From Eledone cirrhosa (taxonomy: Eukaryota), in assembly GCA_964016885.1 (NCBI GenBank), contig OZ024747.1, positions 20,336,001 through 20,400,000 on the forward strand: a stretch of DNA of 64,000 nt, given 5' to 3'. Numbering within the stretch: position 1 is the stretch's first letter; every line of letters begins with the position of its first letter. A program made the translations under genes and the position numbers. Below the pieces are notes generated by a model. That model searched no databases. It saw nothing but the letters and a program-made list of their open reading frames with translations, and had not been told where the DNA came from. Below are positions 4,039 to 57,531 of this stretch, one piece after another.

Positions 4039-4045
<7 letters not shown>

Positions 4046-4256
4046 TAACAGATTAAAGTTTAAGCAAAGAATCGCTGCTTTCACCCTTTGTTAGTTCAGA
4101 AGATCCCGTTAAGGGTGAAAGCAGCGATTCTTTGCTTAAACTTTAATCTTATTTAATGTTATTTTAATAAATATTTGCTCTACGGTTCTTATATATTTGA
4201 TATATATTTTCCTTATCGAGCCCTCTTTGGATTTTAGTCTTCAATTTTATTATTAT

Positions 4257-4260
<4 letters not shown>
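4039..4260 (+). mobile_element. Fold-back HHR retroposon (family D); HHR at 4093-4142
   Basis: Inverted arm 4039-4088, then the direct part with CAGAAGA-tCCC-GTTAA-GGGt-GAAA-GCA..TGC-TT-AAACT. (TA)n flanks. Several more copies in the window. Confidence 0.8.
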
Positions 4261-5659: not shown

Positions 5660-5940
<281 letters not shown>

Positions 5941-13903: not shown

Positions 13904-14937
13904 CTAGCATTCTTTTAGTCTAGCATTCATTTAGTCTAGCATTCATTTAGTCTAGCATTATTTTGTCTAGCATTCATTTAGTCTAGCATTCATTTAGTCT
14001 AGAATTCATTTAGTCTAGCATTCATTTGGCCTAGCATTCTTTTAGTCTAGCATTCATTTAGCCTAGCATTCATTTAGTCTAGCATTATTTTAGTTTAGTA
14101 TTCATTTAGTCTAGCATTCTTTTGTTCTAGCATTCTGTTAGTCTAGCATTCTTTTGGTCTATCATTCATTTAGTCTAGCATTCTTTTGGTCTAGCATTAA
14201 GTTAGTCTAGCATTCTTTTAATCTAGCATTCTTTTTGTTTAGCATTATTTTAGTTTAGCATTCATTTAGTCCAGTATTCTTTTAGTCTCGCATTCATTTG
14301 GTCTAGGATTCTTTTAGTCTAGCATTCATTTAATCTATCATTCATTTAGTCTAGCATTCATTTAGTCTAGAATTGTTTTAGTCTACCATTCAGTTTGTCT
14401 AGCATTCTTTTAGTTTAGCATTCATTGAGTTTAGCATTCTTTTGTTGTAGCATTCTTTTAGTATAGCATTCTTTTGGTCTAGCATTCTTTTGGTCTAGCA
14501 TTCATTTAATCTGGCATTCTTTTGGTCTAACATTATTTCAGTCTAGCATTCTTTTAGTCTAGCATTCTTTTAGTCTAGCATTTTTTTAGTTTAGCATCTA
14601 TTTAGTCTAGCATTCTTTTAGTTTAGCATTCATTTAGTCCAGCTTTCTTTTAGTCTAGCATTCATTTGGTCTAGCATTCTTTTAGTCTACCATTCATTTT
14701 GTCTAGCATTCATTTAGTTTACCATTCAGTTAGTCTACCATTCAGTTAGTCTAGCATTTTTTAGTCTAGCATTCTTTTAGTTTAGAATTCATTTAGTCTA
14801 GCATTCTTTTGGTCTAGCATTCTTTTAGTCTAGCATTCTTTTAGTCTAGCAATCTTTTAGTCCAACATTCATTTAGGCTAGCATTGTTTTAGTCTAGCAT
14901 TCTTTTCCTCTAGCATTCTTTTTGTCTAGCATTATTT
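13904..14937. repeat. 16-bp tandem satellite, ~64 copies, consensus GTCTAGCATTC(A/T)TTTA
   Basis: Direct inspection. Confidence 0.95.
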
Positions 14938-14947
14938 TAACCACTAG

Positions 14948-15602: not shown

Positions 15603-16806
15603 GTAAATAAATCGTCTAGAAATGAATTATATATATGCGGTTTAATAGAATAAATGATAGTGTAAAAGAAAAGCAGATTGTATGGAGAAATTAGTTTATT
15701 GTCATCTATATCTGGTATAAAAGAGAAAACCTTTATTTACAGGAACATTCAGTTATTTAATGAGACAGAGTGATGTTTCCTTCTATGCCAGCTTCCAAAC
15801 CTACCATTCGCATTCACAATATCTTAAACAATATGACGCATCATAAACAAACAAGTGAAATTTCATTCTATGCAATCCTCTGTTAGAACTAGTAAGATTG
15901 AATTCATAACGTAATAACAATGCTATATGACCAAAAAGAAATACATCTAGTGTAATATATTTTTGATTTTGTTGTTATAGGTTTTAGCCCCTATTAATAT
16001 AATCTATGATCTGATTAATACCAGCGAAGTGTATGTACAATATGTTGATCCTAGTGAAATGTATACACAAAATCTTTTATGTATAATATACATATATGCA
16101 GGTTTCACTAGCTGTTGCAGGATAACAGCTTAAAAGATACATAGTGAGACATATATATGATTTTTATGCATAAACATACATATGCCTACTTCTGCAGCCC
16201 TCTCTTATGAATCACGTTATGTTGAAGCTACTGCTAATATGACCATATGTTTTCCAACTAATTTTTTTTTTTTAAAGATAGGTTGTAGTTTGTAGGCGAT
16301 TAGCTTTGAGTTTCTAGCAGGCTAAGTAACATCTTAGTACATCTGTCTTTCACATGTATTACCCTTGACATCAAGAAAACCTTTGTTAGCAAATGCTCAA
16401 CTGTGAATTCAATCGCCAAGAGGAAATGTGAGCCAGTGAACGTAAATAGAGGTTTGATAGAATTAATCTCTTCTGCAGAAAATATACATGTACTGCCATC
16501 TCAATACACGCAACCAGATAAAATGGACTACATAGATACTGAGCTTCTATCCTGCTGTACAAATATTACTGACATGGCAAAAATCTTGACCTTACTCTTT
16601 AGAGTCAAGAGGCTTTCTAAAGGAAAATCTTGTATTCTTATTAATTCAATATGAATGAAGCATGATATACACCGGTGCCATATGCATCCGGGCCTGGGTG
16701 ACTGTTTAATACACAACATATATATATAATTTATGATAAACACAAACATCTGAGTGACCATACACCCGTCGCAAGCAGCGATTCTTTGCTTAAACTTTAA
16801 TCTGTC

Positions 16807-16909
<103 letters not shown>

Positions 16910-18979: not shown

Positions 18980-21373
18980 ACTTATATAACATAATGCAAT
19001 GATTATCATAATTTAGTCCCCTATATCATCATAACCATTAGTAATACATAATCATTAGTAATGCATATCTCCACTTAGACACTAAACCTTCAGTTGTTCA
19101 CCCAACAGAAATTCCACTAATTGAAATTAAAGTGTAAGCACCTGGATATCTCGTAGACTTCCTGCACTTTAAAATCATGGTTGCATTAACCATTAATGAA
19201 AATAAGCATATGCTTAGTGTATTTAGTGAAGAGTGGCACTATTTTATCTAAATTGCATATATTTGTCATTAAGAAAAAAAAAAAGATTTTTGCAGGCTTT
19301 ATTGCCGTAGGGTTTTACGTCCTCAATATTACTTAATCCAGGTCTGGGTTACATGGATATTCTATTTGTTAAAGCTGTCCTGTACTCTCTCGTGTATTTT
19401 CTATATACTGACACTTGAGCTGATATGGTCATTAAGCAAAGTAAGCACCTGCTTAGGATAGCTAGAGAAGAGGGACACCATTTTATTAAAATGAAATTTA
19501 TTTGTCATCCCACTTTTTGTTTAACACTTTAATCTTTTAAGTGCTTAAGAGCACACAAAAAATTAACATATTATTCGAGGGGGCGGGGAATAGTTGACAT
19601 TCAGGTATAATCCAAACGATTATTTTTTTTACTACATTTTCCTTCTACTCAAATGCATTCACACGTTTGGGTCCCCACTCAGCTATAATATAATATTTGC
19701 CTAACATGATATACAATAATATCAAACACAAAACCTCATAATTCTGAAGCGAACTTGTTACCCATTCACTTCTGCGTTCCCTTACGTCATGGTATTACCT
19801 GCACCATCTCTATTGTAATTATTCTAAGAGCGGACCTTTATGAATGAGGATAGGCAGAGAAGTTAGAGCGTCAAGCAAAAATGATTTTGCATGATATAGT
19901 TAGGACCCGTTACCTTGTAAGTTCATATTCCGCCAAGGTCAGCTATTTCCAAGGTCAATAAAACAGTAATATTTATATTCTTTGTAATCGACTTCCTCGC
20001 CCCACATGATAATTTCATATTTTACAAAACTTCACGCCATCCAACTTAAACATTCTTACTCTTCTCAATAAATGCTAAACTTACACATTTTAAAATATAT
20101 CGATATATATTAGATAACGCTAGTATATGACTAATAGTTTACCCTTTAAAACTGATAAATGTTCTGGTATAGCCATGTTATCTAAAATCGAAATGTATGT
20201 CTATTCCAATTAAATTCTTCCGATAAATCTGTCATTTAATCTTAAATCTTCAATATATTTCCTTGGGGTCTTAGAGGCTTTGTCTGCACTTTCTAACTGA
20301 AAAAATATTAAATTGAATTTTATCATTTTTCTTTAATTATTGTAATATTAGCTGAAGTTCATTTAAAAGAAAAATACAAAAACGTTGAGTACTCATGTAA
20401 TCTTTTTATTTTTTTTATTTTTAATACATATTCAGTAATAGAAAATGGTGGTGGAATGGCAGAGTTGGTAAAGTGTCAGATAAAATACAATTGTAATATT
20501 TATTCTGTCTGTTTACACACTGAGTTAAATCCAACCATGTTCGACTTTGCATATCAACCTTCCGGGATCGTGAGAATATAATCCCAGTCAATAAATGTTG
20601 TTGGTTCAATCACCTTCTTACTACCCTTCAAATGCCTTTGGCTGATTTAATAAACACCTTCGTCCTGTCCTCCAATATGTCTGGCCTTGTGCCTAAATTA
20701 GAAATCAATAATTATTTAGTGAGAGAAAGAGATGGAATCAATCCCCATGATAATTTTAGGAATAGAAACTTTTGTAATATTCTAAGATTTGCAAAGCAAG
20801 TGAATTATGTTATTTTTTAAAAACAGATTTTGTTAGTAGTTTCTAATTTCATAGTCTTATCTTTGATGGCTATTTAAGTATATAGTTAATAGCTATAGCC
20901 AAGCCACGTGGATTTCATAATCTTACATCTTCCCTTTAGCTGTAACAACTGTTTAGTCTAGACGTTATTTCCCTATACAATGAAATACATTAAAGTTTTT
21001 TTTAGTAGTTATTAATCATCATTAAGACTAGTTTACTGAAGTGTTATAACTGTGTTAATTAGCTAATATTTTTAATCGTGGTAAAAACGCGCTTTGAACA
21101 TTTAAGCAGGTAAAAATGTATATTTTCCTTAAATATAAATTTTGCTTGCTCTTAATTGTAATATACATAAGTATTGCACCTGAATAAAACATTGAATGAA
21201 AAATGCTCTACCAAATACGAATTTTAGCATGTATAAACTATATTTGAGCTGATTTAAGGTATAGTATGATTTAAATATGTTTTATTTCAAACCATTTTCA
21301 TACCCAACCAACACACGTATAATGGATAATTCAGCAGATAGTTACGAATAGATAAACTCCACACCATCTGATG

Positions 21374-21430
<57 letters not shown>

Positions 21431-21703
21431 CTCTCGTCCATGAATTCACCAAGCTTAAGCTTATAGATATCATGTACTTGTCTCTTCCTATCTTTCCGTT
21501 GCAATACCATCTTTGTTTGTTTACATGTCTCGCTCGCTTCCCGCTATTTTACTTGTCCCAATAACTTTATTTAGTTGCACCAACCAGAGGTATATGATTT
21601 TTAAAGCGATGAAATACCAATGAAGGTTGGAAGATCACTGATGAAGGACTAACTTTATTCATATGTAACCCATGTGCAACCACACAGCACTCCATTTTTC
21701 TTA

Positions 21704-21755
<52 letters not shown>

Positions 21756-21803
21756 ATCGTTATCTGGATGCACTCTTTAGATTTTGGTCTTCATATTTAT
21801 TAT

Positions 21804-21843
<40 letters not shown>

Positions 21844-21864
21844 GCACACACACAGAAACACACA

Positions 21865-22314
<450 letters not shown>

Positions 22315-23003
22315 GTACATATAAGTATAAGACAATCAGATGGTGTGGAGTTTATTTATTCGTAACTATCTGCTGAACATTCATTCTTTTGCTACTACTA
22401 GTTACTTTCGAACTTGAGTTACTCCAGATGTCGCAATGTTGAAATATTGGAGCGTGAAAATCTGTATATGGACGAAGGGAATTGTTACCTTCGAATTCGT
22501 TTACTCATGCATTATAAATAATATATATTTGCAGAGTGATATTTTCGGAGGTATGAATAACAATCCTGTTGATAAAAATGAAAGAAAAATTGTCATTTTT
22601 CTCTGGCGGAAACTAACGGAATTTGTGTGCGAACTTCAGACTATTTATTTCTAATAGACATTTTGTACATATTAACAATACATATGATTAACGAAAAAAT
22701 AATTAAATACTATATACAGAGAGACAGATATATATATATAAAGAAAATACGCAATACATTGTGTGAAGCATGATGCATGATAACCCCAACAAAACTAATT
22801 GGTGAAGTTCGTTGTTGTTTTACAGGCCAACTCGGCTTTAGTTTTGAAGCACTTTCTTGATTTTTACTTTGTCTTGTGCGATATAGATTTGGTGAGTGGT
22901 ATTCAACGTAAGTGTGTGGATGACATTGGAGTGATGAAGATTTCATTATGCTCGGATTAAGGCAATTGCCGGTTTAGTTACAACCCTCTCTCTCTCACTC
23001 TCT

Positions 23004-23145
<142 letters not shown>

Positions 23146-23452
23146 GTGTGTGTGTGCCTGTATGTGTATGTATACACACAGTCACACACATCTCTCTCTC
23201 TCCTCTCTCTCTCTCTATATATATATATAATATATTTATATATATGTTGATGTGTGTGTGTGTGTATCTGTGTGTATGCATACACATACGTGCACGTCCC
23301 CCGCCACACACATACATACACACGATAATCTATATGAACATGGAAGCCATAAATATTGCGTTTATCGACATATCAAACACTGAACCATCTATGTATTTTG
23401 TTGCCGGTGGATGAACACATATAATTGTTGCTTTATCGTGAGAAAATGTATA

Positions 23453-23571
<119 letters not shown>

Positions 23572-24044
23572 CCACACTCACACACCTCCACACTCACATA
23601 GAGGCACACAATTCAAAACATATTATAAACAACACGCATACACACACACAGAGAAACACAAATGAATGTACTGACAATCCGCTCACATACACACAAGCAC
23701 AGAAGACATTAACATCAAATACTAACTCAATAGCACAATCACACAATTACACAGCCACTCTTCCACATGGAGTTAAATGCACATGACTGCACATATTAAT
23801 ACACCCTCACTTGCTTCATGGACACCCATAAAATCTATCAGTCTCCATTCACGAAACACAGGTTTTGTACACAACCAAAAAGAACTCTTGTTTCAACATG
23901 TATGAAAACCCTTTGTTTATTAGACTTTATATGTTCGTACACATATGGGTGTATGCAGTGTTTGTGTACACTCGCACACACACACGCACGCGCACACACA
24001 CACACACACATACACACACACGTACACATACACACACATATATA

Positions 24045-24062
24045 GAGAGATATAAACATATA

Positions 24063-24101
<39 letters not shown>

Positions 24102-24118
24102 ACAGGGAGAAAGAGACG

Positions 24119-24164
<46 letters not shown>

Positions 24165-24257
24165 ACACACAAACACATATATATATATATATAGATATAA
24201 CCATATATATATGTGTGTATATATATATATATATATGAAAACAGGGAGAAAGAGACG

Positions 24258-24297
<40 letters not shown>

Positions 24298-24428
24298 ACA
24301 CACACACACACACACACATGTATATATATAGATATAAACATATATATATGTGGGTGTGTATATATATATATATATATATATATGAAAACGGAGAAAGAGA
24401 CGATTATATATATATATATATATATATA

Positions 24429-24461
<33 letters not shown>

Positions 24462-24479
24462 GATATAAACATATATATA

Positions 24480-24524
<45 letters not shown>

Positions 24525-24560
24525 ACAGGGAGAAAGAGACGATTATATATATATATATAC

Positions 24561-24600
<40 letters not shown>
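24045..24600. repeat. ~140-bp compound tandem repeat, 4 copies
   Basis: GAAAACAGGGAGAAAGAGACGATT anchor at ~24098, 24237, 24384 and 24521, separated by variable (TA)n/(CA)n. Confidence 0.85.
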
Positions 24601-24609
<9 letters not shown>

Positions 24610-25069
24610 GTATATATAGTATATGTGTGTGTAAGTGTGTGAATGTGTGTGTATGTGTACATATGTGCGTATTTGAATTAATATATAAGTGAATTCTAAT
24701 TTCACGAAATTTATAGCAGACTTGATGACAATGATGATGAAGATGACGATGACGATGATGATGATGACAATGATGATGAAGATGACGATGACGATGATGA
24801 TGACGGTACTGATAAAGAGATTAATAATATCGATGTGAAAAAGGACAACTATTATAATGTAGAAGATATGAACAGTTATATTAACAGCAATGATGCAAAT
24901 TGGTATAGTAAACCATTAAAACCAGACGAAACTATTGATAAATGAAACAACAGTGCAAAAACAAGTCAGACAATTAACATAGACATAGGTGTAATAGCAA
25001 CAGAGTTTCCTGACCATATTATAATTCTCTCTAGCCATTCTACCAATCCACCAACCTAGAAATTATATC

Positions 25070-25240
25070 AATAATTGTTTCTACTGTTGGCACAAGGCTA
25101 TCAATTATCCCAGTGCATTACTGGTACTTTATTTTATCGACCCCGTAAGGATGAAAGGCAAAGTTAACCTCGGCGGGATTTGAACTCAGACTGTAAAGGG
25201 ACGTAACTATGCTAGAAAGCATGTCGTCCAACCCTCTTCC
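25070..25240 (-). mobile_element. Nin/Deu-domain tRNA-SINE
   Basis: CTGGTACTTTATTTTATCGACCCCGTAAGGATGAAAGGCAAAG core. Confidence 0.85.
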
Positions 25241-25250
25241 TTCAATATAA

Positions 25251-26200
25251 TCTATATATATAAAACTGTGGTTGTCTGTCTGTCTATCGATTTTTGGCAC
25301 ACATCTCCTCTTAGAATCTCTCACGGAATTGCACCGAAATTGCTATACTTGTACATTGAGCCCTAGCGAAGACATCGGAAAAAAAAATTTCAAATTCACC
25401 CACCCTATGTGACGAAATCGAATATAATGTATCGATTTTTGAGCGTAAGTTATCAGTTATTTCCCTTTGTTCTGTTTACATTGAGCGTCTTACGTAAAAA
25501 ATTACGCTGGCTTTCTCAGCGTTTAAAATGACATTAACACAATACACGAAGCTTCCGTTTTGCTTCATTTCCATTTAAAAGCATTTTAAAACAATATTTT
25601 TACTTGAAAACAAGTCTATTTAAAGACTACGTAAAACAAGCAAATATTTCGTCGTTAGGCGTGCAGACAGACAGTCGTGCAGAGAGGTGATATACGCGTG
25701 CAGACAGACAGTCGTGCAGAGAGGTGATATAGGCGTGCAGACAGACAGTCGTGCAGAGAGGTGATATAGGCGTGCAGACAGACAGTCGTGCAGAGAGGTG
25801 ATATAGGCGTGCAGACAGACAGTCGTGCAGAGAGGTGATATAGGCGTGCAGACAGACAGTCGTGCAGAGAGGTGATATAGGCGTGCAGACAGACATAACT
25901 GATAATTTGGTTACGCCAATGTTTTTCTCTGCGTTGCAGTGTTTACATTTTCGATCTTTGTTAATAAATAACCAGTGCAGTTTCTATCCCCAGCATCCTC
26001 TTTTGTTATAACATTCGGGTTATCGTTATGTTTTCTTAACTTCATAAGGCATATTGTTGGTTGAGGGAATATTAATCAAAAACACCACATGCAAGTCTGC
26101 ACAGTAGACACTACAGTTTTTAAGCCAAAAAAGAAACTTAACATTGTAACTTTAACACAGCTACTGAGCGACCCCGAGCAACGCCGGGCTTTACTGCTAG
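25251..26200 (+). mobile_element. Non-autonomous Helitron
   Basis: 5' end A|TCTATATATATAAAA. 3' GC hairpin CCCGAGCAACGCCGGG followed by CTAG|T. No TSD. Confidence 0.85.
25657..25895. repeat. 37-bp minisatellite, ~6.4 copies, inside the Helitron
   Basis: Unit AGGCGTGCAGACAGACAGTCGTGCAGAGAGGTGATAT; copies nearly identical. Confidence 0.95.
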
Positions 26201-26445
26201 TATAATATAACATTAACTATACTATTTTTAGCGTGACTATTTGAAATGTTGATGAACGAGATTGAACTCTGTAAAACTGCTATAGACTTAATCCTTCCCT
26301 CTCTATGTATATTTTTTCTCCTCCATTTCCCTCAGACCATAAAGGGCCCTAACTCTTTGCTGCAAAGCATGATGTCCGACCCTCTACCGATACTGCCAAT
26401 CCAATGTTAACTAATAAAGGCAGATTACCGCGGGTGCGGGTTCAG

Positions 26446-26542
26446 CTTAACTGGTACTTTGAGGGTCCAATACTTAACTGGTACTTTGAGGGTCCAATAC
26501 TTAACTGGTACTTTGAGGGTCCAATACTTAACTGGTACTTTG
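26446..26542. repeat. 27-bp tandem repeat, ~3.6 copies, in an old SINE remnant
   Basis: Unit CTTAACTGGTACTTTGAGGGTCCAATA. Confidence 0.9.
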
Positions 26543-26794
26543 TTTTATCGACATCGGAAGGAACAATGGCAAAATTGTCCTCGGCAGTATTTGTATTAAG
26601 AACGTAGTAGAATCATATCTAAATACCACAAACGTATATAGTCCGATGCTGCACCGACTCAGCCAATCCAGTGCCCTAGTAAAAATACAAATAATGATTG
26701 GTCACATAAGTATGCAGCCATAAAATGAGAAAGACAAAGTCAACATCAGCAGAGTTTCACCCCAGAATATCTATTTTCATTATTAGTGTCCCTT

Positions 26795-26921
26795 TATGAT
26801 CTGAGTTCAAATCCCGCCGAGGTTAACTTTGCTTTTCATCCTTGCGGGGTCGCTAAAATAAAGTACCAGTAATGTACTGGGTATTTGCTGGCCATGTGCC
26901 AAAAAATAGAAACAATTATTA
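26795..26921 (+). mobile_element. Nin/Deu-domain SINE, 5'-truncated
   Basis: Matches 27872-27995. Confidence 0.85.
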
Positions 26922-27804
26922 GTGTTGCTGTTGTCTTGTCTTAATTTGTTATTGCTGTTATTGTTAATATTGTTCTTAATAGTATTGATTTTTGCTATCA
27001 AAGACCATTAGTTTGATGAAATGTTTGCTATTGAAATATTGAGTTGATCGAATCGTTGAAGAAGCTCCCATCTCTTATAACGACATGCCTATGTCTATGT
27101 CACTATTACAACTGATTATTATTATAGTTAATTACTATAATTATGTATTACCGCCGTGGTAGGAATCTCAAACCAGAACGAATATTTCAATTGACATTGA
27201 GAAAGTCAGAGTGGGTGATTACCGAGTCTGTAAAATTATCATTAGTAAAATACCACACAAAATATGAGTTTATGTATAATTTTTCATCATCTGTTTAAAT
27301 TCTGAGTTCAAACTTTCAGACGAGACAGCATTTAAAACCCAAACCATGCAAGAAAAGGTGCCCCACAACGGGGAGAAATGAGACAAAATAGGGAGATTTT
27401 ACATAATGAAACCTATACCCACTTTCACAAGAGAAGACATCTCTCACCCATCCCAAAGTGGGTGGGAGATCACCCCGTTGGATGGGGATAGTTGGCAGGC
27501 CTGAATTTAACTGGTTGTAATTGTATCTTTCCCCAGTTCCAGAAAGCGGAGATGTATTGCAAACACTACGATAGATTTAATCGATGAATTGTACATGACA
27601 ACACAACCTCAGTTTCTCTTCTTTACATCTATGGCCTATGTGCCAAAGTCATAAATCAATTGAAGAATTACGATTGCTAACTAAAATCTGGCAAGGGCTC
27701 GATTTTTCTTGTATTTTTTTATATATTTAATTTGATCGAATAACTTCCAGTTGTGTGTTGTGAACTGAATCGATAATCAATGCACATTATTTACAATTAG
27801 ATCA

Positions 27805-36268: not shown

Positions 36269-39200
36269 TGTTTCTTTTATTTGCCACAAGGGCATCAAAA
36301 GTGGGACAAGTACAATGGGGGGAGTTTACAAAACAAGGCGTCCTCAATAGGGAGGAGGCAATAACAATATATAAAAATAAAATAAAATATAACAATAAAT
36401 AGAATTATAACAAAATCCTCAATAGAGGATTTTGTTATAAAATATAACAAAAAATAAAATTTATAACAAAATCCTCAATAGAGAGGAGGCGCCTTGGGGG
36501 GTCGCACACACCCCCGAAAAAAGTGTGCAACCCTTTTCCTCAGGAGCACAGAGAGGGGGTGCTCCCTTGTTCCTTCCTCTTTTCCACCTACAGGCTCATG
36601 TAAAGAGAAGGCCCATTCACACGGGCCATTCTCGCCACTTTCACCCACCTTTCATAAAAACGACTGGGGTGCAGCACCTCTCTCTCCATCCTGATCCTTC
36701 TTCCGAAATGATATCGGAAGAAACGGACCAGTTGTTGGCCAGAGAGAAAGGTGCCTGACCTCAGTCCTTTCAGACGCGTCCACCATACAACCTCTTTCGC
36801 CATGGCTATTACGCACAGAAACACCGCCTCTGCTTCATCTTTGAAGGTGGGAGGCGGCTTGATCATTACAATAGACTCGGTGGCCAACCGGATCGGTCCC
36901 ACCCTTGACAGCAGTTGTTCGACATAGCCCCACAGATCGGCTACGCCCGAGCAGTGTACCAATGCGTGTGTAACGGTTTCCTCGTCGCACACGCATCTGG
37001 GACAGATCTTTTTGGCGGGGTCTCTACCCGGGCGCCCGTGTCTGTAGAGCCTTTCTCGAACGGGTAAAGCTCCTCGGTAGCACTGCCAGGCCAGGGACTT
37101 CTGGAAGTTGTCCATAGGTCCCGGGCTGAATGTCCTACCGAACAGGCTGGCCAGTTCGTCCTCCTCCATGTCTAGGGCTTCTCCGAGGGCGTCGTCGCAC
37201 CTGCTGCGTACCAGCCCTCTATAGAATGTTGCGGTGGAGTCTCCACTGATAACCGGATCCGCCTGCCAGAGGGCGGTGAGCGCCTGGGCACACTCAGTGT
37301 GCCAGGCGCCCAGTTTTCTCGGTCTTTGCTTGACCCAGGATTGCAGCTCGGTGAGTGAGACGAGTCTGGGAAAGGTTCGTCTCACAAACGAGGCCCACAC
37401 CGGTTGTCCGGTGAGGAATACGTAGAGGTGCCGTAGCCTTAATGCGTGTTTACGCATCATTAGCCACGGCATCCCCAGCCCTCCTTTCGAAGGGTGTTGA
37501 CAGCAGATGGATCTCCTCACCATAGGAGCCCGCCTCTTCCAAAGGAATTGGAAGAGCGCGCGCTCCATCTTTGTGAGGGTTTCCCTTGGGCAGGGCACTG
37601 CGGTCAGGCGGTAGTAGATGACGGACGCTATATAAGTGTTCGCCACCTCCGCCCGACCTTTCAGGGATAGTTTGCAACTGGCCCACTTCTGTGTCAGTGC
37701 AAACACCCTGTTCGTAACCTCCGCCCAGTTTTTCTCCACCTGGAGGTCCGGTCCGAACCAGACCCCGAGCAACTTCACCGAGCCCTCCGTCCAGCGTCCG
37801 ACGACGCCATCGGAGGGCATCGGTCTGCCCCTCCACGTGCCGAGTTGCAAACCGATCGACTTGTCCCGGTTCAGCTTAGCCCCTGTGAACTTTTCGTACT
37901 CCTCCAGTAAGGTGCCGACCGCCTCGATCCCGGAGGCCGTCGACACCATTACTGTCACGTCATCGGCGTAGGCCGACACCGCTTTCCGCAATCCCGGTTC
38001 CAAAGGGATGCCCTGCAACAACTCCAACTTCCGCAGTAGTGGCTCGAGAGTCAACACATACAGAAGGGAGGAGAGAGGGCACCCTTGTCGGATGGACCGA
38101 GAGGTAGCCGTTCACCTTGACCCTAGAGCAGATGCGGCTGCTATGCATAGCAGTGATCCAGCCCCTGAAAACGGGTCCGAAGCCTGCCGCCGCTAGCACC
38201 GCATCCAGGTAACCATGGTCGACCCTATCGAACGCCTTAGATTGATCCAAGTTGATCAGAGCCCCACCAAAGCCGGGTTCGTTCCCAACCCTCTCTATGA
38301 TGTATCGCATGAGGTGGAGGTTGTCATGGATGGACCTGGACGGGATAGCGCATGTCTGCGCATCTCCCACCAGGTTGCCCACGACAAGCGCCAACCTCTT
38401 TGCTAGCACCTTGGCCAAAATCTGTAACTCTGTATTTAGCAGAGTTATGAGCCTGAAGTTACTTATTTCGTCCCCCTTGTTCTCGTCCTTCCTCACTAGC
38501 GTGACTACGCCCTTGGTCACAGCACAGGGAATTCTCCCGTTCTGTTGCCAGTTGCAGTAGACCGCCTCGAGGAAATCGGGGAACAAGTCCGGCATAGCTA
38601 GATATAATTCGTAAGGAAGACCATCGAGACCGGGGATTTGCGTTTGCCGCATTGGCTCAGCACGTCCTCTATCTCAGCGGCCGAAATCGGCTCCTCGCAG
38701 GACTTCGCCTCCCTGTCCGAGAGGCGCGGCAGGCCGTCGAGGTATGGACCGAAGTCCACGTTCCCAACCGGCTCCCCGCCCCTCCCGAACAGTCAGGAAA
38801 AGTGCCTTTGAAAGGCCTCACACATCTGCTTAGGCTCAAGAATCGCCCGTCCATCCAGGTCTCGCAAAGACCGGATGGTGGATTTAGTTCCACTGTTGGC
38901 CTCTGTCACGCGGGCCCAGCTAACAGCTTTGGTTCCCTCGTTCCCTAGAGCACGTATTTTACTTCGGACAACGCAGCCTTCGTGCTTCGCGTCGAAAAAC
39001 TGGCTCAAAGCCGTTCTCGACGCTAGCACTCTGGCCACGTCGCCGCTTCTAATTGCCTCTTCTACTCTATCTATTAGCTCCCTTTCCTTCCTATTCCTAT
39101 CCGCAGCTAGAACCTTACTAAATTCTATCGAGACTACTCTAATCTCTCTCTTTAGAGATACCCACCACCTGCTGTTGACGATCGCTCCAGTCAACCGTTC

Positions 39201-40054
39201 CTTAACTAACGTACTAATCCGATTCCTGTAGGCTCTACTTGCCGGCAAGGACAAGTTGAGCTTCCAGTAACCGGGGCCCTGTCTATGAGTTCTGTCAAGG
39301 TTGACCATGCAGGTCACTAATTTGTGGTCTGAATAGCCAACCATGCGCATTTTTGGACAACTTAAAAAGTCCTTATCCTTAATTCTAACTAAGAACCTAT
39401 CTAGGTACGACCTAGATGATCCGCTACGATTTGCCCAAGTCCAGGTTGGCGCAGTCGGAAAATCTAGTCGATATCTATCGGCCAGGTCAAATCGACCGAT
39501 TAACCCTTTGAGGCTATTACACCCCTCTCTATCGGTGCAGGCCCCTACGTAGTCCCAGCGTGCATCTAGGATACCATTCCAGTCCCCCACTAATAGCAAG
39601 GAGCGGGACGTCCCTAGAAAAGTCTCCAGACGATGGAAGAAGTCCGGCCGCATTGACCCGAAAGGGCCGTAGGCGGCTACCAACCTAAACGCTCCGCCTT
39701 TACCACTGCCAAGGTCCTGAACCACTAGTCGACCCTCCGGGTCCAGATGTACCATCTGTGTTGCGAGACCCAGATGTTTTTGCAGCAGAACGACAACTCC
39801 AACCCCACCTCCGGGCTGACAGAGAGATGCGTGCATCTCAAAGTTATCAAAGGTGGGGGCCAGCTGTCGCACGTTGCTGATCCGGGCCTCGCAAATAACC
39901 ATCACATCTATACGTTGTGACCTGAGGTCATTTAGAAGCATTGCTTGCTTCCAAGTTGAGCCCAGGCCACGCGCATTTAAACAGCCTACTCTTAGCATAG
40001 CCATGTTGGTGGTGAAGAGAAAAGGCACTTACCTCTCTGCGTCCCGGGTATCGA
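36268..40054 (-). mobile_element. Tx1/L1-clade non-LTR retrotransposon, 5'-truncated just upstream of ORF2, inserted in (TATC)n
   Basis: GC-rich island with APE, RT and CCHC domains. 3' end CTTGTGGCAAATAAAAGAAAC. (GATA)n on both flanks. Confidence 0.92.
36588..40004 (-). pseudogene. Frameshifted ORF2: AP endonuclease, reverse transcriptase and CCHC finger
   Basis: GCLNARGL, GDWN, YLDRFL, SDHKLV (38793-40004). PGLDGLP, RLITLLNTE, LDQSKAFDRVDH (37960-38652). RQGCPLS, AYADDV, CPRC..ETVTHALVHC (36588-38100). At least 2 frameshifts. Confidence 0.92.
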
Positions 40055-40262: not shown

Positions 40263-41139
40263 TCTTTATTTGCCACAGGGGCGTACAAAAATGGGACATT
40301 ACAAGACGTGACGGCGGGGGTTTTACATAAAAATAACTTTAACATTAATAAATAACAATAAACTATATATAAGGAACACGTTTTATAGGTATTCCTGTCT
40401 TCCCTCTGTTTATCTTCCTCAACCTACAGGTTTATATACAGAAAAGGGCCATTCACTCGGGTGATTTTCGCCACATTCACCCACCTTTCAGCGAATTTAC
40501 TGGAGTGTGGCACCTCTCTCTCCACTCTCACCTTCCTTCTGAAGTGATACTTAAAGAAGGGCATAAGTTGTTGTGCGGAGAGAAAGGTGTTTGCCCTCAG
40601 TCCTTTTAACCTCGTCCACCATATTACCTCTTTCGTCATAGCCACCAGACAGAGGAAAACCGCCTCTCCTTCGTTCTTAAATGAAGGCGGCGGGATGATC
40701 CTCACGATGGACTCGGCTGACAACTGGATGCGTTCCACACGTGACAGCAGCTGTTCGACATATTTCCACAGGTCGGTCACCCCTGGGCACTGAACAATTT
40801 CGTGCAGAACGGTTTCGATGTCCTTCTCGCATCTTGGACAAGTCCTTTTAGCAGGATCTCTGCCAGGGCGTCCGTGCCTGTAGATTTTGTCTCGAACTGG
40901 TAGAGCTACTCGGTAGCACTGCCAGGCCAGAGACCCCTGGAAGTTAACCATAGGCCCTGGACGGAAAGTCCTCCCGGACAGACTGGTCAGTTCGCCCTCC
41001 TCGATGCCTAAATTTTCCCCGATAATCTCGTCGCACTTATCCTCCACTAATCCCCTATAGAATGTCGAAGTGTAGTCTCCGCTGATTGCCGTTTCCGCTT
41101 GGTAGAGGGGTGTGAGCGCCTGTAGGCACTCAATGTGCC

Positions 41140-41140
<1 letters not shown>
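40262..41140 (-). mobile_element. Second, diverged Tx1-like copy (3' ~880 bp) in (TATC)n
   Basis: WHIECLQAL..LAWQCYRVALPVRD..CPRC..ETVLHEIVQC is homologous to the first copy. Same 3' end TGTGGCAAATAAAG. (GATA)n flanks. Confidence 0.9.
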
Positions 41141-41230
<90 letters not shown>

Positions 41231-41231
41231 T

Positions 41232-41288
<57 letters not shown>

Positions 41289-41578
41289 CAGATAGATAGA
41301 TAGATAGACAATTAGATGGAGCGATAGATAGAAGATATGTTTCTCACCTTCTCTTAAAAACGTATTCTATAGACCGAGATATCTGAATCTCATTAATAAC
41401 ATATTTCGTGAAAAAAAGAAAGTCTACAAGAGACAATTCAATGTAATTAATTTTCGCTTTGAAGCGCTTCTAAAATTCATTTCACAGCAGATTTCAGTGC
41501 GATCCTGCTTCTTCCATCTCCCCTCTACCTCTCTCTCAATCTCTATATCCCATATATATATATATATATATTTATATA

Positions 41579-41781: not shown

Positions 41782-42290
41782 ATACATATATATATATACA
41801 CATACATACATATATGCACACACACACAACACACATATGTATATATGTATGTATGCATGCATTTATGTGTGCATTTGTGTATATATAGTAATTCATTTTG
41901 GTACGTTTGTCGGCTTCGCTGAACTTGAATTGACACCATGTTAACGATTGTTAAGTTCACCGACCATAGATAGTTCGGCCTTATCGACCAGCCTGAAGAA
42001 GTTATCTGCACTTAACTAATACATTGTCACTGGGGACATTTACGGCGCTGCACGCTTCATGTTTTAACAGTTTTTATTCACAGTTTACACATTATAAAAT
42101 ATGAAAATGTCCGGTCATTTCGTTTGAGATTTATACTCAATTGAATGTGAATAATGATATACACTCTCACTGCCAAGAGCTGAACCTGCGTTTTAAGCCT
42201 CCTACTATATATAACAGATAACGCAATTTACTTGTCTGGCCTCTGTGTCTAATACATATATATACACAGAGACACATTATATATATATAT

Positions 42291-42374
<84 letters not shown>

Positions 42375-42379
<5 letters not shown>

Positions 42380-42521
42380 AAAAAGTATGTCTCTGACGGC
42401 AGAGCTCAAGCCGTTTCGACGTCGGAGTCATACTTTTTCCTATTTCCCACTCTACTACCCTAAGTATTGAGTACTCTGATGCGTTATGGTACATATGGTT
42501 CGTTACCACAATTCCTTCGTT
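42375..42521 (+). mobile_element. Fold-back retroposon (family E), short
   Basis: Inverted arm 42375-42420 is joined to the direct part at GTCGGAGTC. Shared tail CCCACTCTACTACCCTAAGTATTGAGTACT..CCTTCGT. Confidence 0.75.
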
Positions 42522-42540
42522 ATATATAAAAGATTATATA

Positions 42541-42791
42541 TATGAAGATTATATAGGACAAACTAAACTCACACTCAGAAATAGAATGACAGTTCATCGC
42601 CAACAATTACGAGATCCAACCACGAGACAGATACCACTAAGCGCACATCTAGACATTTGCGCAAGTAATAAGACACTCAAATTCCAAGTCTTCCCATTTT
42701 ACCTTTGCGCTGACAATACAACAGAACAAATACGAATAAATAAGGAAATATGTTTATTCAAAAATATAGACCAGCATTAAATATGGTTTAA
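42541..42791 (+). pseudogene. C-terminal GIY-YIG endonuclease of a Penelope-like retroelement
   Basis: YEDYIGQTKLTLRNRMTVHRQQLRD..LSAHLDIC..FQVFPFY..IRINKE, a 1-nt frameshift, then MFIQKYRPALNMV*: the YIG, R..H, E..FI....P.LN motifs. Confidence 0.88.
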
Positions 42792-43805
42792 TATACATTA
42801 TGTCAACACCATAACATGCTAACCATCCAAACAGACACATACACACACACATAACACCTTCTACTTTAGAAAATAAAAACCCGAACTAAATAAACCTTAA
42901 CATACGTTTGCGCTGACAATACAACAGAACAAATACGAATAAGTAAGGGAAATATGTTCATTCAAAAATATTCCTACTAATGGATTCATTTTCCTACACA
43001 CACACACAAACACACACGCGCGCGCGCGCACACACACAATATACATTCACTTCATCTTAACATGCTAACCATACTCCCACACACACATAACACCCATACA
43101 CACACACATAACACCCCCCACACACACACAACTCCCTCCCCCATTTCTACTAATAGAATCACTTTCCTACACACATACACACATACACACAATATATATT
43201 CTTTCCATCTTAACATACTCCCACACACACACAACTCCCTCCCCCATTTCTACCAATAGAATCATCTTCCTATACCCACACTCACACACAAACACACAAA
43301 TAAATATACATATGTCTACTTTCTTTATTTCAATAGAAAATCTGAACTCTGACACCCCAGCGAACTAGCCATATTCACTGAACCAGAAAATTCTCCCATA
43401 CCATTTCTCTTGACCATTCTTTTGCTTGTCATAAATTCTCTAAAAGGCTACAAAATAAATTCCAAAATACGGGCGCAAAGTTTAATGAACTTGTTCACGT
43501 GACAACCATAATTTCTCTTATAATCAATCAAATTACATTTTTAAAAAAGGCTTCGTGAGCCCCCTTTTTTAAGTAAAACGAAATTCAAACACTCATATAT
43601 GAAAAAACAATCTCAGCCCCCCCCCCCTTGTTTGAAGAACTTTGTAACGCGAACTGGCGCGAAATTTATTATACTTATTGACCAACCAATCAAATTACTT
43701 CTCTAAAATCCTGGCGTTTCGAGCCACTTTTTTCCGTATAAAACGAGTAACATTCAAAGACCAACCAGATGTGAGAAAAACCACAGACCCTCCATCTCAA
43801 CTCTA

Positions 43806-43841
43806 CTTTTGAAAAGCAGAAGAACTGCGAAACCGGTAAAG
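43806..43841 (+). ncRNA. Minimal type I hammerhead, U3-A8 core
   Basis: CTT-TTGAAAA-GCAG-AAGAA-CTGC-GAAA-CCGG-TA-AAG; palindromic ACCGGT stem III, GUA site. Confidence 0.72.
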
Positions 43842-43994
43842 GAACCTAATAAATATATATATTTTTTTAAATAAGACTCCAGTTGCATTTTCGATTTCAT
43901 TTTTTTTCTTTATACTTTCACTCGTGTAGGACACCTCGGTTATTTTTCATTTTGTAAAAAAACCTCACTTTCTAATAAATATATATATATATAT

Positions 43995-44084
<90 letters not shown>

Positions 44085-44628
44085 TAAAAGTGGAATAATG
44101 CACTTGTATTTTAGTAAGGTGTGTTAAGCTCGATGCGTTAATAATGTCGTCATTATGCATTACGATACTGGTAGATAAAGACAGTGAGAGCCGCTGAGCA
44201 TACTTAATAAATATAAAACGAAAACTAACGTTGTTATTCAAATCCCATCTTCAATTTCTACAATTGTTTCTATGTAGATAAATGAAGCACCAGTATGCAG
44301 AATAAATCAATTATTGAGTCCAACAATTAATAATCAATAATCAAAATGGCACCCCAGCATGGATCACCATTTCGTAAGGAAAATAGATAGAAACATTCAG
44401 TTCCTTAGAGTATTAACGCGACACTCTGCATCTGAACATATCAACGAAATAAAAGGTAAAATCTATTCCAACATTATGTTTTCCTGTTTTTTTCTGTTCT
44501 AACTGCATGATGAGATCATAGCTATTGGATAATGGCTATCACCGAAATATATATAGCAGCGAATATGAATAAACGAAGTTAATTTTAACCTGTTGACTTA
44601 CACTTCTTGTTTATATATATATACATAG

Positions 44629-44713
<85 letters not shown>

Positions 44714-44827
44714 TATGCGCGTAAACATATATATATATATTTATATTTGTAGTAAGGTTGCTTGGATGCGTCCATAGGCGTTATGCCGGTTGAGCACTCT
44801 ATGCACCTTCAAAGAAAAGTATAATGA

Positions 44828-45014
44828 TAATTGTTTCTACTTTTGGCAAAAGGCCACCAATTACCCAGTACATTACTGGTACTTTATTTTATCGACCCTG
44901 TAAGGATGAAAGGCAAAGTTAACCTCTGCGGGATTTGAACTCAGACCATAAAGAGCCGTAACTCTTTGCTGTAAAGCATGGCGCCCGACCCTCTACGGTT
45001 ACTGCCAATCCACT
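44828..45014 (-). mobile_element. Nin/Deu-domain tRNA-SINE
   Basis: Near full-length reverse complement of the 27805 family. Confidence 0.88.
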
Positions 45015-45239
45015 GATGATAATGATATTTAGACAGAAGATTTGCTTCGAAGTTGCTAGACGTATCTAATGCACTTGCGAATTCAGAGTCAGGTTCGATC
45101 CACAAATAGATTGTACCTTTGAGTCGTTCGCCGGAGAAACAATTATAATACGTTATTAAATTGTTTCGATGCATCAGTGATTCTTCGTTTTCCATATCAA
45201 TATATATATATATATATATATATAGTAATAATAATAACA

Positions 45240-45290
45240 TTTCAGAAGATCCCGTTAAGGGGAAAGCAGCGATTCTTTGCTTAATAAATA
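45240..45290 (+). mobile_element. Family D fragment (HHR core only)
   Basis: TTTCAGAAGATCCCGTTAAGGGGAAAGCAGCGATTCTTTGCTTAA between (TA)n tracts. Confidence 0.7.
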
Positions 45291-45305
45291 TATATATATA
45301 TATAT

Positions 45306-45550
45306 AAATGAAAGGTATACAAAATATTGTAGCAAAAAGCCAACAGTATTCCATAATACATAAGTGACTATAGCGTCAAAATGGGTAAAATAGTTAACGT
45401 AAGATGTGGGAAAAATAATTCAAACTCATCTCCAAAAAGAATCAGGATATAGATTCATCCAACAGAATTTAGTGAAATCCAGGGAAAAAGTCAATATAGC
45501 CTTAACTCATCATAAAATAAACTTTTGCTACAATATTTTCTATACCTTTC

Positions 45551-45555
<5 letters not shown>
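45306..45555. mobile_element. Insert with ~32-bp inverted ends between (TA)n tracts (family L)
   Basis: AAATGAAAGGTATACAAAATATTGTAGCAAAA vs TTTTGCTACAATATTTTCTATACCTTTCATTT. Confidence 0.6.
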
Positions 45556-45637
<82 letters not shown>

Positions 45638-45640
<3 letters not shown>

Positions 45641-46054
45641 AGATCAAAAGATGGTTAAAGGAGTTCCATATATTTTATTATGCGCATTTCAAAAACAAAC
45701 ATCATCAAACAATAATATTTGTGTTTTCATCAGATAAAACAGGAGAATATGATATGAGGGCTAAAAAACACTTGTTGATAGTGCAGTTTTAAATCAACAT
45801 ATGTTGATTTAAAACTGCACTATCAACAAGTGTTTTTTAGCCCTCATATCATATTCTCCTGTTTTATCTGATGAAAACACAAATATTATTGTTTGATGAT
45901 GTTTGTTTTTGAAATGCGCATAATAAAATATATGGAACTCCTTTAACCATCTTTTGATCTTATATTATGCATACTCCAGTCCCACAAACTGTAGAGTGCT
46001 TCTTATCCGATATCTGCATTGCTTTATTGTACTACAATAAAACTCACCTCCTAC
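45638..46054 (+). mobile_element. Fold-back HHR retroposon (family H): 326-bp perfect palindrome plus ~90-bp tail
   Basis: Arms 45638-45800 and 45801-45963 with no spacer. (TA)n flanks. Confidence 0.88.
45862..45928 (+). ncRNA. Type I hammerhead (mirror copy on minus at 45673-45739)
   Basis: TTTTAT-CTGATGA-long stem II-GAAA-TGCGCA-TA-ATAAAA; palindromic ATGCGCAT stem III, AUA site after 45922. Confidence 0.85.
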
Positions 46055-46091
46055 ATATATATATATATATATATATACATATATATATACT

Positions 46092-46190
<99 letters not shown>

Positions 46191-46617
46191 CAGGGATATA
46201 AATATAGTTTTAACATAAGACGAATGACAGCTGCATATCTATCTCATCAACCAACCTAGTGACAGTTCATTGTCCTGCATTAGTATGGTACAACAATCGT
46301 GACAACAGTTTACGGGACCGATCATATGACAGGTCTGTTGGTGAGATATATGTAAGGCGATAACATATATACAATAATAGTTACAAATTTATTGAAATAA
46401 TGAGTTGAAAAAAGTACACATTAGTAGAGTAGGTAAATATTTATTTAACATTGATATATGCCAGTACAGACTTAGTACGTTTTCATTTGGCGAAAGAAAT
46501 ACTGTTATAGCCTTCGAGAAGTCATTTAAATACATATATATGTATATATGTATATATATATACATATATGTTATAGAATACTTTTAGCTTCTCGCTAAAA
46601 CAATCTCTATACCTCTC

Positions 46618-46934: not shown

Positions 46935-47214
46935 GTATTGAAATTTCCGTAGGAAACAGAAAAGGTCATAGAAATGAAGAGTGCTCTATGTAAGTATCAG
47001 AGCAAAATTTAATGTATAAAATCAATACAATATAATTACCTCATTACCAGAGGTTTCCCGAATGAGACGAATACGAAATAAACGACTTCATTCGTTCGTC
47101 AGACGAGGCAATATTGCCTCGTCTGACGAACGAATGAAGTCGTTTATTTCGTATTCGTCTCATTCGGGAAACCTCTGGTAATGAGGTAATTATATTGTAT
47201 TAATTTTATACATT
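46935..47214 (-). mobile_element. Fold-back HHR retroposon (family J): 204-bp palindrome plus tail
   Basis: Palindrome 47011-47214 centred at 47112/47113, tail 46935-47010, (TA)n flanks. Confidence 0.85.
47113..47190 (+). ncRNA. Type I hammerhead (mirror copy on minus at 47035-47112)
   Basis: ATTGCCTCGT-CTGACGA-aCGAATGA..TCATTCGg-GAAA-CCTCTGG-TA-ATGAGGTAAT; 10-bp stem I, GUA site after 47180. Confidence 0.88.
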
Positions 47215-47380: not shown

Positions 47381-47516
47381 TTATTAAAATAACAGATTAA
47401 AGTTTAAGCAAAAATCGCTGCTTTCACCCTTATTTGCTCTACGGTTCTTATATATTTGATATATATTTATCCTTATCGAGCCCTCTTTGGATTTTAGTCT
47501 TCAAATTTATTATTAT

Positions 47517-47520
<4 letters not shown>
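47381..47520 (+). mobile_element. Family D copy (short inverted arm plus tail)
   Basis: Same arm start and tail as 4039-4260. Confidence 0.8.
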
Positions 47521-48098
<578 letters not shown>

Positions 48099-55713: not shown

Positions 55714-56623
55714 GTAGGAGGTGAGTTTTATTGTAGTACAATTTCATCCTTAATTTATTATTATTGTAGTACAATTTCATCCTTAATTTATTATTATTTT
55801 TTTCTCCCCATCAACGAACTCATTATTAATACATATGAATTCAATATACAAACTTTAACTTCACATTATTTTTCTCAAATCCTTCTACACATAAACTTTT
55901 TTTCTCTTTGCTAATTTTGAAATTCCCACAATACATACATTTCTTCTTTTGACGTTAGAATATTCACCCACAATTATTATTTTTTTCTCTCTATCTTCAT
56001 ACATAATTTCCCTTCGTTAATTTTCAAATTCCTTTAATTTATACATTATCTTCCAACGGTTCCCAACCTCTCTATATTAAAACATTATATCTTTTTCTCA
56101 GTTATAAAAACTATCTCTTTCTCTCTATCACCCATCTCTCCCTTTCCACCTTCACTCTCATCTCCTCCCCTTTTTTTCATCCTTTCCACCCCACCCCCCT
56201 CCCTAAATAAAATATTTTTTCCTCGCACATATCCTCCCTTCGTTAATTTTCAAAATTTTTAATTTATACAGTATCTTCCAACGGTTTTCAACCCCTCTAT
56301 ATAAAATATATCTCCTCTCAGTTATAAAAACTATCTCTTTCTCTCTATCACCCATCTCTCCCTCTCATCTCCTTCCCTTTTCATCCTTTTCTCCCCCCCC
56401 TCTCTAAATAAAATATTTTTCCCAATATCACACATCAATCTAAAACCACTTTTCATATGTTGATTTAAAACTGCACTATCAACAAGTGTTTTTTTAGCCT
56501 TCATATCATGTTCTCCTGTTTTATCTGATGAAAACACAAATATTATTGTTTGATGATGTTTGTTTTTGAAATGCGCATAATAAAATATATGGAACTCCTT
56601 TAACCATCTTTTGATCTTATATT
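55713..56623. mobile_element. Family H copy: short tail arm on minus plus ~870-bp arm on plus; HHR at 56519-56585
   Basis: 55714-55742 is the reverse complement of the tail end at ~46026-46054. 56457-56623 matches 45801-45966. 33-bp junction duplication and ~227-bp internal duplication. Confidence 0.8.
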
Positions 56624-56642
56624 ATATATATATATATATATA

Positions 56643-57251
56643 TCGTTTCTGAATTTCTTTAGCAAGATTCTTTATCTGAAAACGTGTGTTGAAACCGATA
56701 TTGTTATGCTTTGGGAGGGTCATGTTGCCAATAAGAAACAAACGCACCAGTTGCTTTCATTCGAATTTATTATAAATTCAATTCATAAATTTAAGAATTT
56801 ATAAATTTCTTGTTGGTTGGTTGGTTCCACAACCAGACGATTGTTCATATATTGTCAAAGTTCTTTCGTCACACATTCTGTGACCTCTTCAGTGACTGGG
56901 GATTCTTTTCTTTGTTTTTGTGCCTCTCCTTTGTTCCGTCCTAGGCCATCTTGTTTTTGTGTATGTTGAGTGCTTAGTTTGCGCATGTGTTACATCCGGG
57001 TGTCTGTGTGTGTTTATATTTGTTTATTTATTTGTTTATTTACATGTTACTTAATCCGCAGTCACTGAAGAGGTCACGGAATATGTGACGAAAGAACTTT
57101 GACAATATATGAACAATCGTCTGGTTGTTGAACCAACCAACCAACCAGAAATTTATAAATTCTTAAATTTATAAATTTAATTTATAATAAATTGGAGTGA
57201 AAGAAACTGGTGCGTGTGTTTCTTATTGGCAACATGACCCTCCCAAAGCAT

Positions 57252-57258
<7 letters not shown>
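56643..57258 (-). mobile_element. Fold-back HHR retroposon (family K): ~200-bp arms, 160-bp spacer and tail
   Basis: 56699-56897 is the inverted copy of 57059-57258. (TA)n flanks. Confidence 0.85.
57061..57103 (+). ncRNA. Minimal type I hammerhead with an extra nucleotide after A9 (mirror copy ~56853-56895)
   Basis: GTCA-CTGAAGA-g-GTCAC-GGAATAT-GTGAC-GAAA-GAAC-TT-TGAC. Confidence 0.75.
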
Positions 57259-57282
<24 letters not shown>

Positions 57283-57287
<5 letters not shown>

Positions 57288-57527
57288 TAAAATAACAGAT
57301 TAAAGTTTAAGCAAAGAATCGCTGCTTTCGCCTTTAACGGGATCTTCTGAAACTAACAAAGTCTTTGTTAGTTTCAGAAGATCCCGTTAAGAGTGAAAGC
57401 AGAGATTCTTTGCTTAAACTTTCATCTGTTATTTTAATAAATATTTGCTCTACGGTTCTTATATATTTGATATATATTTATCCTTATCGAGCCCTCTTTG
57501 GATTTTAGTCTTCAAATTTATTATTAT

Positions 57528-57531
<4 letters not shown>
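57283..57531 (+). mobile_element. Family D copy; HHR at 57370-57420
   Basis: Palindrome centred at ~57361, CAGAAGA core, and the same tail as the other D copies. Confidence 0.85.

Follow-up and report, generated by a model that had tools for sequence, protein, structure and literature searches.

The closest described systems to the locus considered here are the EN+ Penelope-like elements (PLEs) of the Neptune clade, with which it shares a C-terminal GIY-YIG endonuclease, a CCHH motif, the catalytic residues R, H, E and N, a 3′ hammerhead, 5′ truncation and a microsatellite target, and whose reverse transcriptase (RT), DKG motif and long CX2-5CxxC linker recur in its nearest full-length relative, P0001 (PMC8557442). 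Naiads also have the long form of the linker, together with an N-terminal endonuclease, a DKA motif and, in the accessible text of the same report, no canonical hammerhead (PMC8557442). The U3-A8 variant of the hammerhead was found by homology with the Schistosoma Cercyon PLE, where it has low activity and needs a dimer, and the cleavage of minimal hammerheads is weak and dimer-dependent (PMC4209133). In vitro, the Poseidon PLE of Anolis nicks AT-rich DNA and reverse transcribes from its 3′ region, while the Anolis PLE hammerhead is assisted by protein and unnecessary for insertion (PMC11167929). Inverted 5′-truncated arms with optional tails are standard insertion products of PLEs (PMC8557442; PMC3846280), hammerhead-bearing non-autonomous PLE derivatives have been reported (bioRxiv 10.64898/2026.07.22.740005), and 31 recently active Penelope-like families are described from Octopus vulgaris in a report whose accessible sections never mention hammerheads (PMC13282606). 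Hammerheads in PLE ends, the U3-A8 variant, microsatellite targeting and inverted arms are thus all already published, and the family described below may itself be catalogued in Repbase or Dfam; in a literature search that covered few subscription papers, we found none on hammerhead-bearing Neptune elements in cephalopods.

The stretch of DNA that was analysed (the window) comprises 64,000 nucleotides of Eledone cirrhosa (contig OZ024747.1, positions 20,336,001 to 20,400,000, forward strand), and all coordinates refer to it unless another locus is named. It contains, among other repeats, a frameshifted minus-strand LINE relic (36588-40028 and 40424-41311) in which AP-endonuclease, RT and zf-RVT domains are recognised and which is accompanied by a second 3′ piece that has diverged (75% identical), as well as a tandem minisatellite array of about 1 kb at 13900-14940. 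We take the LINE relic at 36588-40028 to be L1/Tx1-like. Between two TA runs, the segment 42542-43979 is very probably a dead, 5′-truncated copy of a repeated PLE, likely of the Neptune type, with a hammerhead that is likely its own. It consists of an endonuclease half with one frameshift, a 3′ region of 1.2 kb and a U3-A8 hammerhead motif. The element is real, was correctly seen by the initial annotation, and has an arrangement that is ordinary for PLEs. The features of the locus, all on the plus strand, are as follows.

42378-42522, plus strand: left neighbour and no part of the element: terminal portion of family A, an unrelated fold-back repeat that is inserted in TA and far more abundant, 86-87% identical to two other copies (5795-5940, 22006-22210)
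42523-42541, plus strand: TA-rich target or junction, with an 11-nt copy (42530-42540) of the first bases of the element (42545-42555), from sequence inspection
42542-42791, plus strand: 5′-truncated GIY-YIG endonuclease half, from ORF translation, Pfam, homologue alignment, tblastn and contigs of public runs
42790-43307, plus strand: CA-rich 3′ UTR made of short internal duplications, from self-alignment
42903-42971, plus strand: internal duplicate of the endonuclease 3′ end, equal to 42700-42767 (94%, one gap)
43481-43793, plus strand: degenerate direct repeat (43481-43623 with 43631-43793), local alignment score 120 against a best of 105 in 300 mononucleotide shuffles
43806-43841, plus strand: type I minimal hammerhead motif with a U3-A8 core, from a descriptor match
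43842-43979, plus strand: 3′ end of the element, from contigs 43768-43899 and 43903-43985 of run X5
43980-44081, plus strand: right flank, (TA)n followed by a (GA)n microsatellite, from sequence inspection

What the segment 42542-42791 encodes is a GIY-YIG endonuclease reduced to its C-terminal half. Aligned to its homologues it retains the YIG motif and the catalytic R, H, E and N, as well as the two His of CCHH; the Cys pair belonging to CCHH falls 5′ of the truncation point, where P0001 and the loose end of one X5 contig show it, and the first half of the GIY-YIG motif was lost through the truncation. The Pfam GIY-YIG model matches the relic with an E-value of 0.0045, below its curated cut-off, and tblastn of P0001 against the window gives an E-value of 1e-28 at the relic. 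The 64-residue ORF at 42586-42780 is open upstream through YEDYIGQT, while FIQKYRPALN is encoded in another frame (42753-42782), followed by a stop at 42789-42791, in agreement with the initial annotation, which had joined the two by one frameshift. This frameshift is a single base missing at 42745 in the window copy: an extra base behind this position is present in 577 of 622 reads of run X10 (another individual), in 17 contigs of run X1 and in one X5 contig; in run X6 it was not seen as an insertion. The partial duplicate, noticed previously at 42907-42971 as preserving the corrected frame, indeed does so, since it lacks the one-base loss and a single frame reads through the break point. Other copies in X1 and X5 also cover the duplicate (X10 covers it thinly and X6 not at all), which makes it a family trait. 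A telomerase-like RT of the PLE kind was not detected in the window by tblastn, and the relic copy carries none. Searches of the 64 kb with blastn and nhmmer gave no further copy of the relic element.

A search with the relic fragment returned seven protein hits among 11 candidates. All seven contain Pfam GIY-YIG, three of them with RVT_1 upstream, the other four being shorter ORFs, and each ends at or near the endonuclease. All seven are PLE proteins and none is SLX1- or UvrC-like, the host types that had been named as the outcome that would speak against a PLE. The nearest, P0001, is an ORF of 772 residues with an RT and a C-terminal endonuclease, over which it is about 74% identical to the relic; no intact ORF of the exact relic family was found (best protein 74.6%), and P0001 had no match among PDB sequences. 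In a tree of the endonucleases, whose bootstrap is not fully settled and in which the relic fills 50% of the columns, the relic groups with P0001 and P0002 (support 100/99). Since this tree leaves the deep forks open, the number of U3-A8 origins is not readable from it.

The clade is indicated by P0001 and its relatives, the linker part having been lost from the relic itself. In P0001 a CX4CxxC motif is separated from the next Cys by 24 residues, and of the 132 retrieved relatives that have a YIG-type motif close to their C-terminus, 100 carry a long-spaced CX2-5CxxC linker (spacings of 22-29). By eye, Fig. S2 of PMC8557442 gives a linker spacer of 25-27 for Neptune and 7 for Nematis, the Penelope and Poseidon rows shown there being without the linker, and its RT3-4 rows of XtropNep4 and DreriNep1 resemble P0001 most. 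Furthermore, P0001 carries DKG and not the DKA of Naiads. The match lies near the C-terminus in 115 of 116 hits, a biased count because most of the 199 proteins were retrieved with P0001, so that only the initial seven hits are unbiased. Together, the DKG motif, the long linker spacing and the C-terminal endonuclease of P0001 make the family likely Neptune-like, an assignment by diagnostic features rather than by a tree of named Neptune references. The earlier reading as a PLE with a C-terminal endonuclease, and not of the Naiad/Chlamys type, thus stands by way of the homologues and is refined to Neptune-like, whereas the C-terminal position as such is not readable from the RT-less relic. The relic stop directly follows the endonuclease, which matches an endonuclease C-terminal to the RT. 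Naiad/Chlamys was rejected as an assignment, because its N-terminal endonuclease, DKA motif and lack of a canonical hammerhead do not fit the relic and P0001. Apart from its likeness to Neptune, the window copy differs from the clade in being without RT, linker and inverted 5′ arm, and in having a 69-nt duplicate of the endonuclease end in its 3′ region.

In four public runs the left boundary of the element is sharp (42528/42542). Loose ends of family A at 42528 run on as (TA)n in all four, and the depth in X1 is 0.39-2.3 million over the family A end, against some 60,000 immediately past it. The match to a contig of organism B begins at 42542, upstream of which this contig has 239 nt more, whose last codons encode the missing first half of the motif. 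The relic is therefore 5′-truncated at 42542, where homology begins, and does not start at 42530 as had been proposed; the first Y of its reading is a junction codon, one base of which comes from the TA flank. The right end of the element is at about 43979, directly before (TA)n and (GA)n. The sequence CTAATAAA(TA)n is found at 43846-43862 and is repeated at the very end (43972-43988).

Within the 3′ UTR, 42790-42858 resembles 43038-43115 and 43117-43199 resembles 43220-43307, and a 48-nt family recurs at 42970, 43143 and 43246. The hammerhead motif lies 1,018 nt 3′ of the endonuclease stop, which bears out the minimal U3-A8 hammerhead that had been reported about 1 kb downstream. Its parts are a core (TTGAAAA, 43809-43815), stem II (GCAG-CTGC, 43816-43828), GAAA (43829-43832), a palindromic CCGG (43833-43836) and TA (to 43838), with a stem I of only 3 bp; cleavage is predicted after 43838. 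The descriptor, which was set after sighting the match on which it was tested, was found in none of 3,000 dinucleotide shuffles of 42794-43985 and in one of 40 block-shuffled whole windows. Rfam gave no hammerhead in the window at gathering level, and none at E-values up to 5 over 42000-46200, where all that matched was noise from hairpins and microsatellites. Folding prediction gives stem II but no stem I, with a stability no greater than that of shuffles (z −0.43). Like the Cercyon hammerhead of Schistosoma, the motif is of type I and U3-A8, with a G10.1-C11.1 pair and a palindromic helix III region calling for a dimer; by comparison, its stem II has 4 bp (7-8 bp in Schistosoma), its stem I 3 bp (4-5 bp), the usual extra, unpaired base after A9 is absent, and, unlike in Cercyon, it is attached to a Neptune-like endonuclease (PMC4209133). 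Two copies are predicted to pair through ACCGGU, which fits the dimer dependence of minimal hammerheads (PMC4209133).

That this hammerhead belongs to the same element as the endonuclease relic is probable from the arrangement of the sequence and its relatives. Four public runs (X1, X5, X6 and X10) from three organisms were mapped on 42380-43985; X1, X5 and X10 cover all 30 bins of this stretch and X6 covers 26 of 30, and the entire stretch is repeated in the three organisms. In X1, which may be the window's own sample and whose depth ratio is not used as a copy number, the depth climbs toward the 3′ end, which is the trend that 5′ truncation should produce: it is about 60,000 over the endonuclease and reaches 1.3 million in the bin of the hammerhead. 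In X10, an uneven RAD library, the rise is not clean. A joint in X10 connects 42755 to 43721 on opposite strands (110 reads, single start), and joints in X1 link 43610 with about 43370, the latter and 43826-43774 being listed without their kind and not counted as fold-backs. Among the 24 contigs listed of 20,261 pieces, none spans from endonuclease to hammerhead, so that shared membership is likely only.

Of 15 related loci, three have a descriptor match at a distance of 55-180 nt past the endonuclease match (C3-G8 in L001, U3-A8 in L002 and L003); the other 12 fail the strict descriptor, three of them having at most 60 nt downstream while the others look decayed. The GAAACCGGT arm of the window hammerhead was recognised by eye in L011 and L007 as well. 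The spacer of 1,018 nt is at least five times that of the related loci (55-190 nt), and a comparison of the element 3′ end with the 3′ ends of five related loci gave nothing better than shuffles, the word GAAACCGGT in L007 and L011 being all that is common. At L011 a second, minus-strand Neptune-like copy (2112-2800 of that locus) lies tail-to-tail with the first, and each hammerhead motif ends in GAAACCGGT. An inverted 5′ arm or partial tandem, neither of which every PLE has, is absent from the window copy; short inverted pieces occur upstream of the ORFs of L003 and L011.

The long spacer, compared with L001-L003 and L011, could also mean that two elements adjoin, the relic ending near 43400-43560 and 43568-43979 being a separate, commoner short PLE derivative. 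The X1 depth dips to about 21,000-27,000 at 43406-43567 and then steps up at about 43568 (from 20,662 to 120,858), as a separate inserted element would cause, and none of the contigs listed crosses 43514-43571. We nevertheless regard two elements as improbable: the step has neither a (TA)n run nor a listed loose end in all runs, unlike the true junction at 42528; the degenerate direct repeat 43481-43793 straddles it, and joints connect both sides; the CCGG arm matches relatives of the relic endonuclease; and a depth gradient toward the 3′ end is what 5′ truncation yields. A peptide from a Naiad or from a host GIY-YIG gene of the SLX1/UvrC kind, with a hammerhead match by chance, is largely refuted and has very little probability left. 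Naiad endonucleases are nearly indistinguishable from those of Neptune, and Octopus Naiads with a (TA)n preference appear in the supplement of PMC8557442, but here a stop directly follows the endonuclease and non-coding repeats follow the stop, all seven unbiased hits end at or near the endonuclease, and Naiads are without canonical hammerheads. Chance is opposed by the 3,000 shuffles and by the highly repeated nature of the stretch.

The window also contains at least nine unrelated inverted-repeat families, mostly abutting (TA)n and showing no alignment between families. Hammerhead cores are canonical (C3-G8) in families D, E and F, apparent (CAGAAGA) in C, represented by the 3′ half in A, and absent from B, G, H and I. 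Family C (4041-4259, 47381-47971 and 57284-57530; fragments 16773-16809 and 45240-45284) is a fold-back in (TA)n, in which all copies seen have an apparent hammerhead with the CAGAAGA core (U4 to A) and a longer helix III, with an 89-nt tail at one end only. Family D (45638-45963, 56454-56622) includes a perfect palindrome of 326 nt with a canonical hammerhead on each arm, and a solo copy that begins at the palindromic CATATG of the fold centre, which suggests a fixed 5′ end. In families E and F (47012-47213, 56698-57259) the canonical cores CTGACGA and CTGAAGA lie shortly past the fold point. Family A (5795-5940, 22006-22210, 42378-42522) is very abundant in X1; its fold-back point differs per copy, only the 3′ half of a hammerhead-like motif is found, and the direct arm of the copy at 42378 restarts at the GTC of the would-be cut site. 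Terminal inverted repeats with a spacer and TA flanks, in which no hammerhead core was found, lie at 1145-1570, 12482-12940 and 45310-45560 and are possibly MITEs of the Tc1/mariner type.

The initial annotation had proposed the element class as the driver of these fold-back inserts, which is plausible at class level and in print; for this family, no similarity to the ten arms above the level of shuffles was found. The relic copy, without RT, cannot mobilise anything. An RT-endonuclease of its family acting in trans would be compatible with a dead, truncated Neptune-like copy, and would account for the taste for (TA)n common to relic and fold-backs; four fold-back families have hammerhead cores and the head-to-head arms typical of PLEs, and trans-mobilisation through pLTR sequences is reported for a rotifer PLE (PMC3846280). 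It is quite doubtful all the same, since neither the last 250 nt nor the whole relic resembles any of the ten fold-back or inverted-repeat arms above shuffles (in the best case 15 of 200 shuffles reach the score), the relic copy has no inverted arm, 12482-12940, 1145-1570 and 45310-45560 may be DNA-transposon MITEs, and in the same rotifer study cis signals are reported to be co-adapted with their own enzyme, and its two PLE types not to cross-mobilise (PMC3846280). With no RT, no inverted arm and no arm similarity, the driver reading is unsupported for this family. The hammerhead fold-backs, compared with known systems, likely represent standard PLE insertion products, each from its own family, and the inserts nearby probably represent 3′ ends of further PLE families and, in part, possibly MITEs. 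They recall non-LTR retrozymes, which are also short hammerhead-bearing repeats related to PLE ends, but those are described as tandem arrays, whereas the relic stands alone as a truncated coding copy and the window inserts are head-to-head fold-backs (bioRxiv 10.64898/2026.07.22.740005).

For the Neptune-like copy at 42542-43979, the known biology of the PLE family suggests the following course. A full-length RT-endonuclease copy elsewhere would have made a nick in the (TA)n tail of an earlier insert, reverse transcription would have started at the RNA 3′ end (about 43979) and halted inside the endonuclease at 42542, and TA-rich microhomology would have joined this end to the target. The hammerhead would cut only as a dimer via the CCGG palindrome, in tandem transcripts or with the help of protein.

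As a single locus the element matters little: a repeat-rich animal genome gains a further Neptune-like family, one that has the already published U3-A8 hammerhead variant. Its value for annotation lies in the boundaries now given for a repeat that the Pfam cut-off and Rfam miss. The locus would gain in weight if the short 3′ unit moves on its own or if the co-resident variant cores are active, the latter because the in vivo role of PLE hammerheads is still open in the accessible literature (PMC8557442; PMC11167929). Conceivably, as a conjecture that we consider rather unlikely, the last 250-400 nt with the hammerhead are now a short non-autonomous element of their own, far more abundant than the coding parent and one of several TA-targeted ribozyme units with altered cores (U3-A8 here, an apparent U4 to A in family C), some of them copied from a fixed palindromic start (family D). 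If this were true, the genome would allow variants of the minimal hammerhead core to be compared across many co-resident families.
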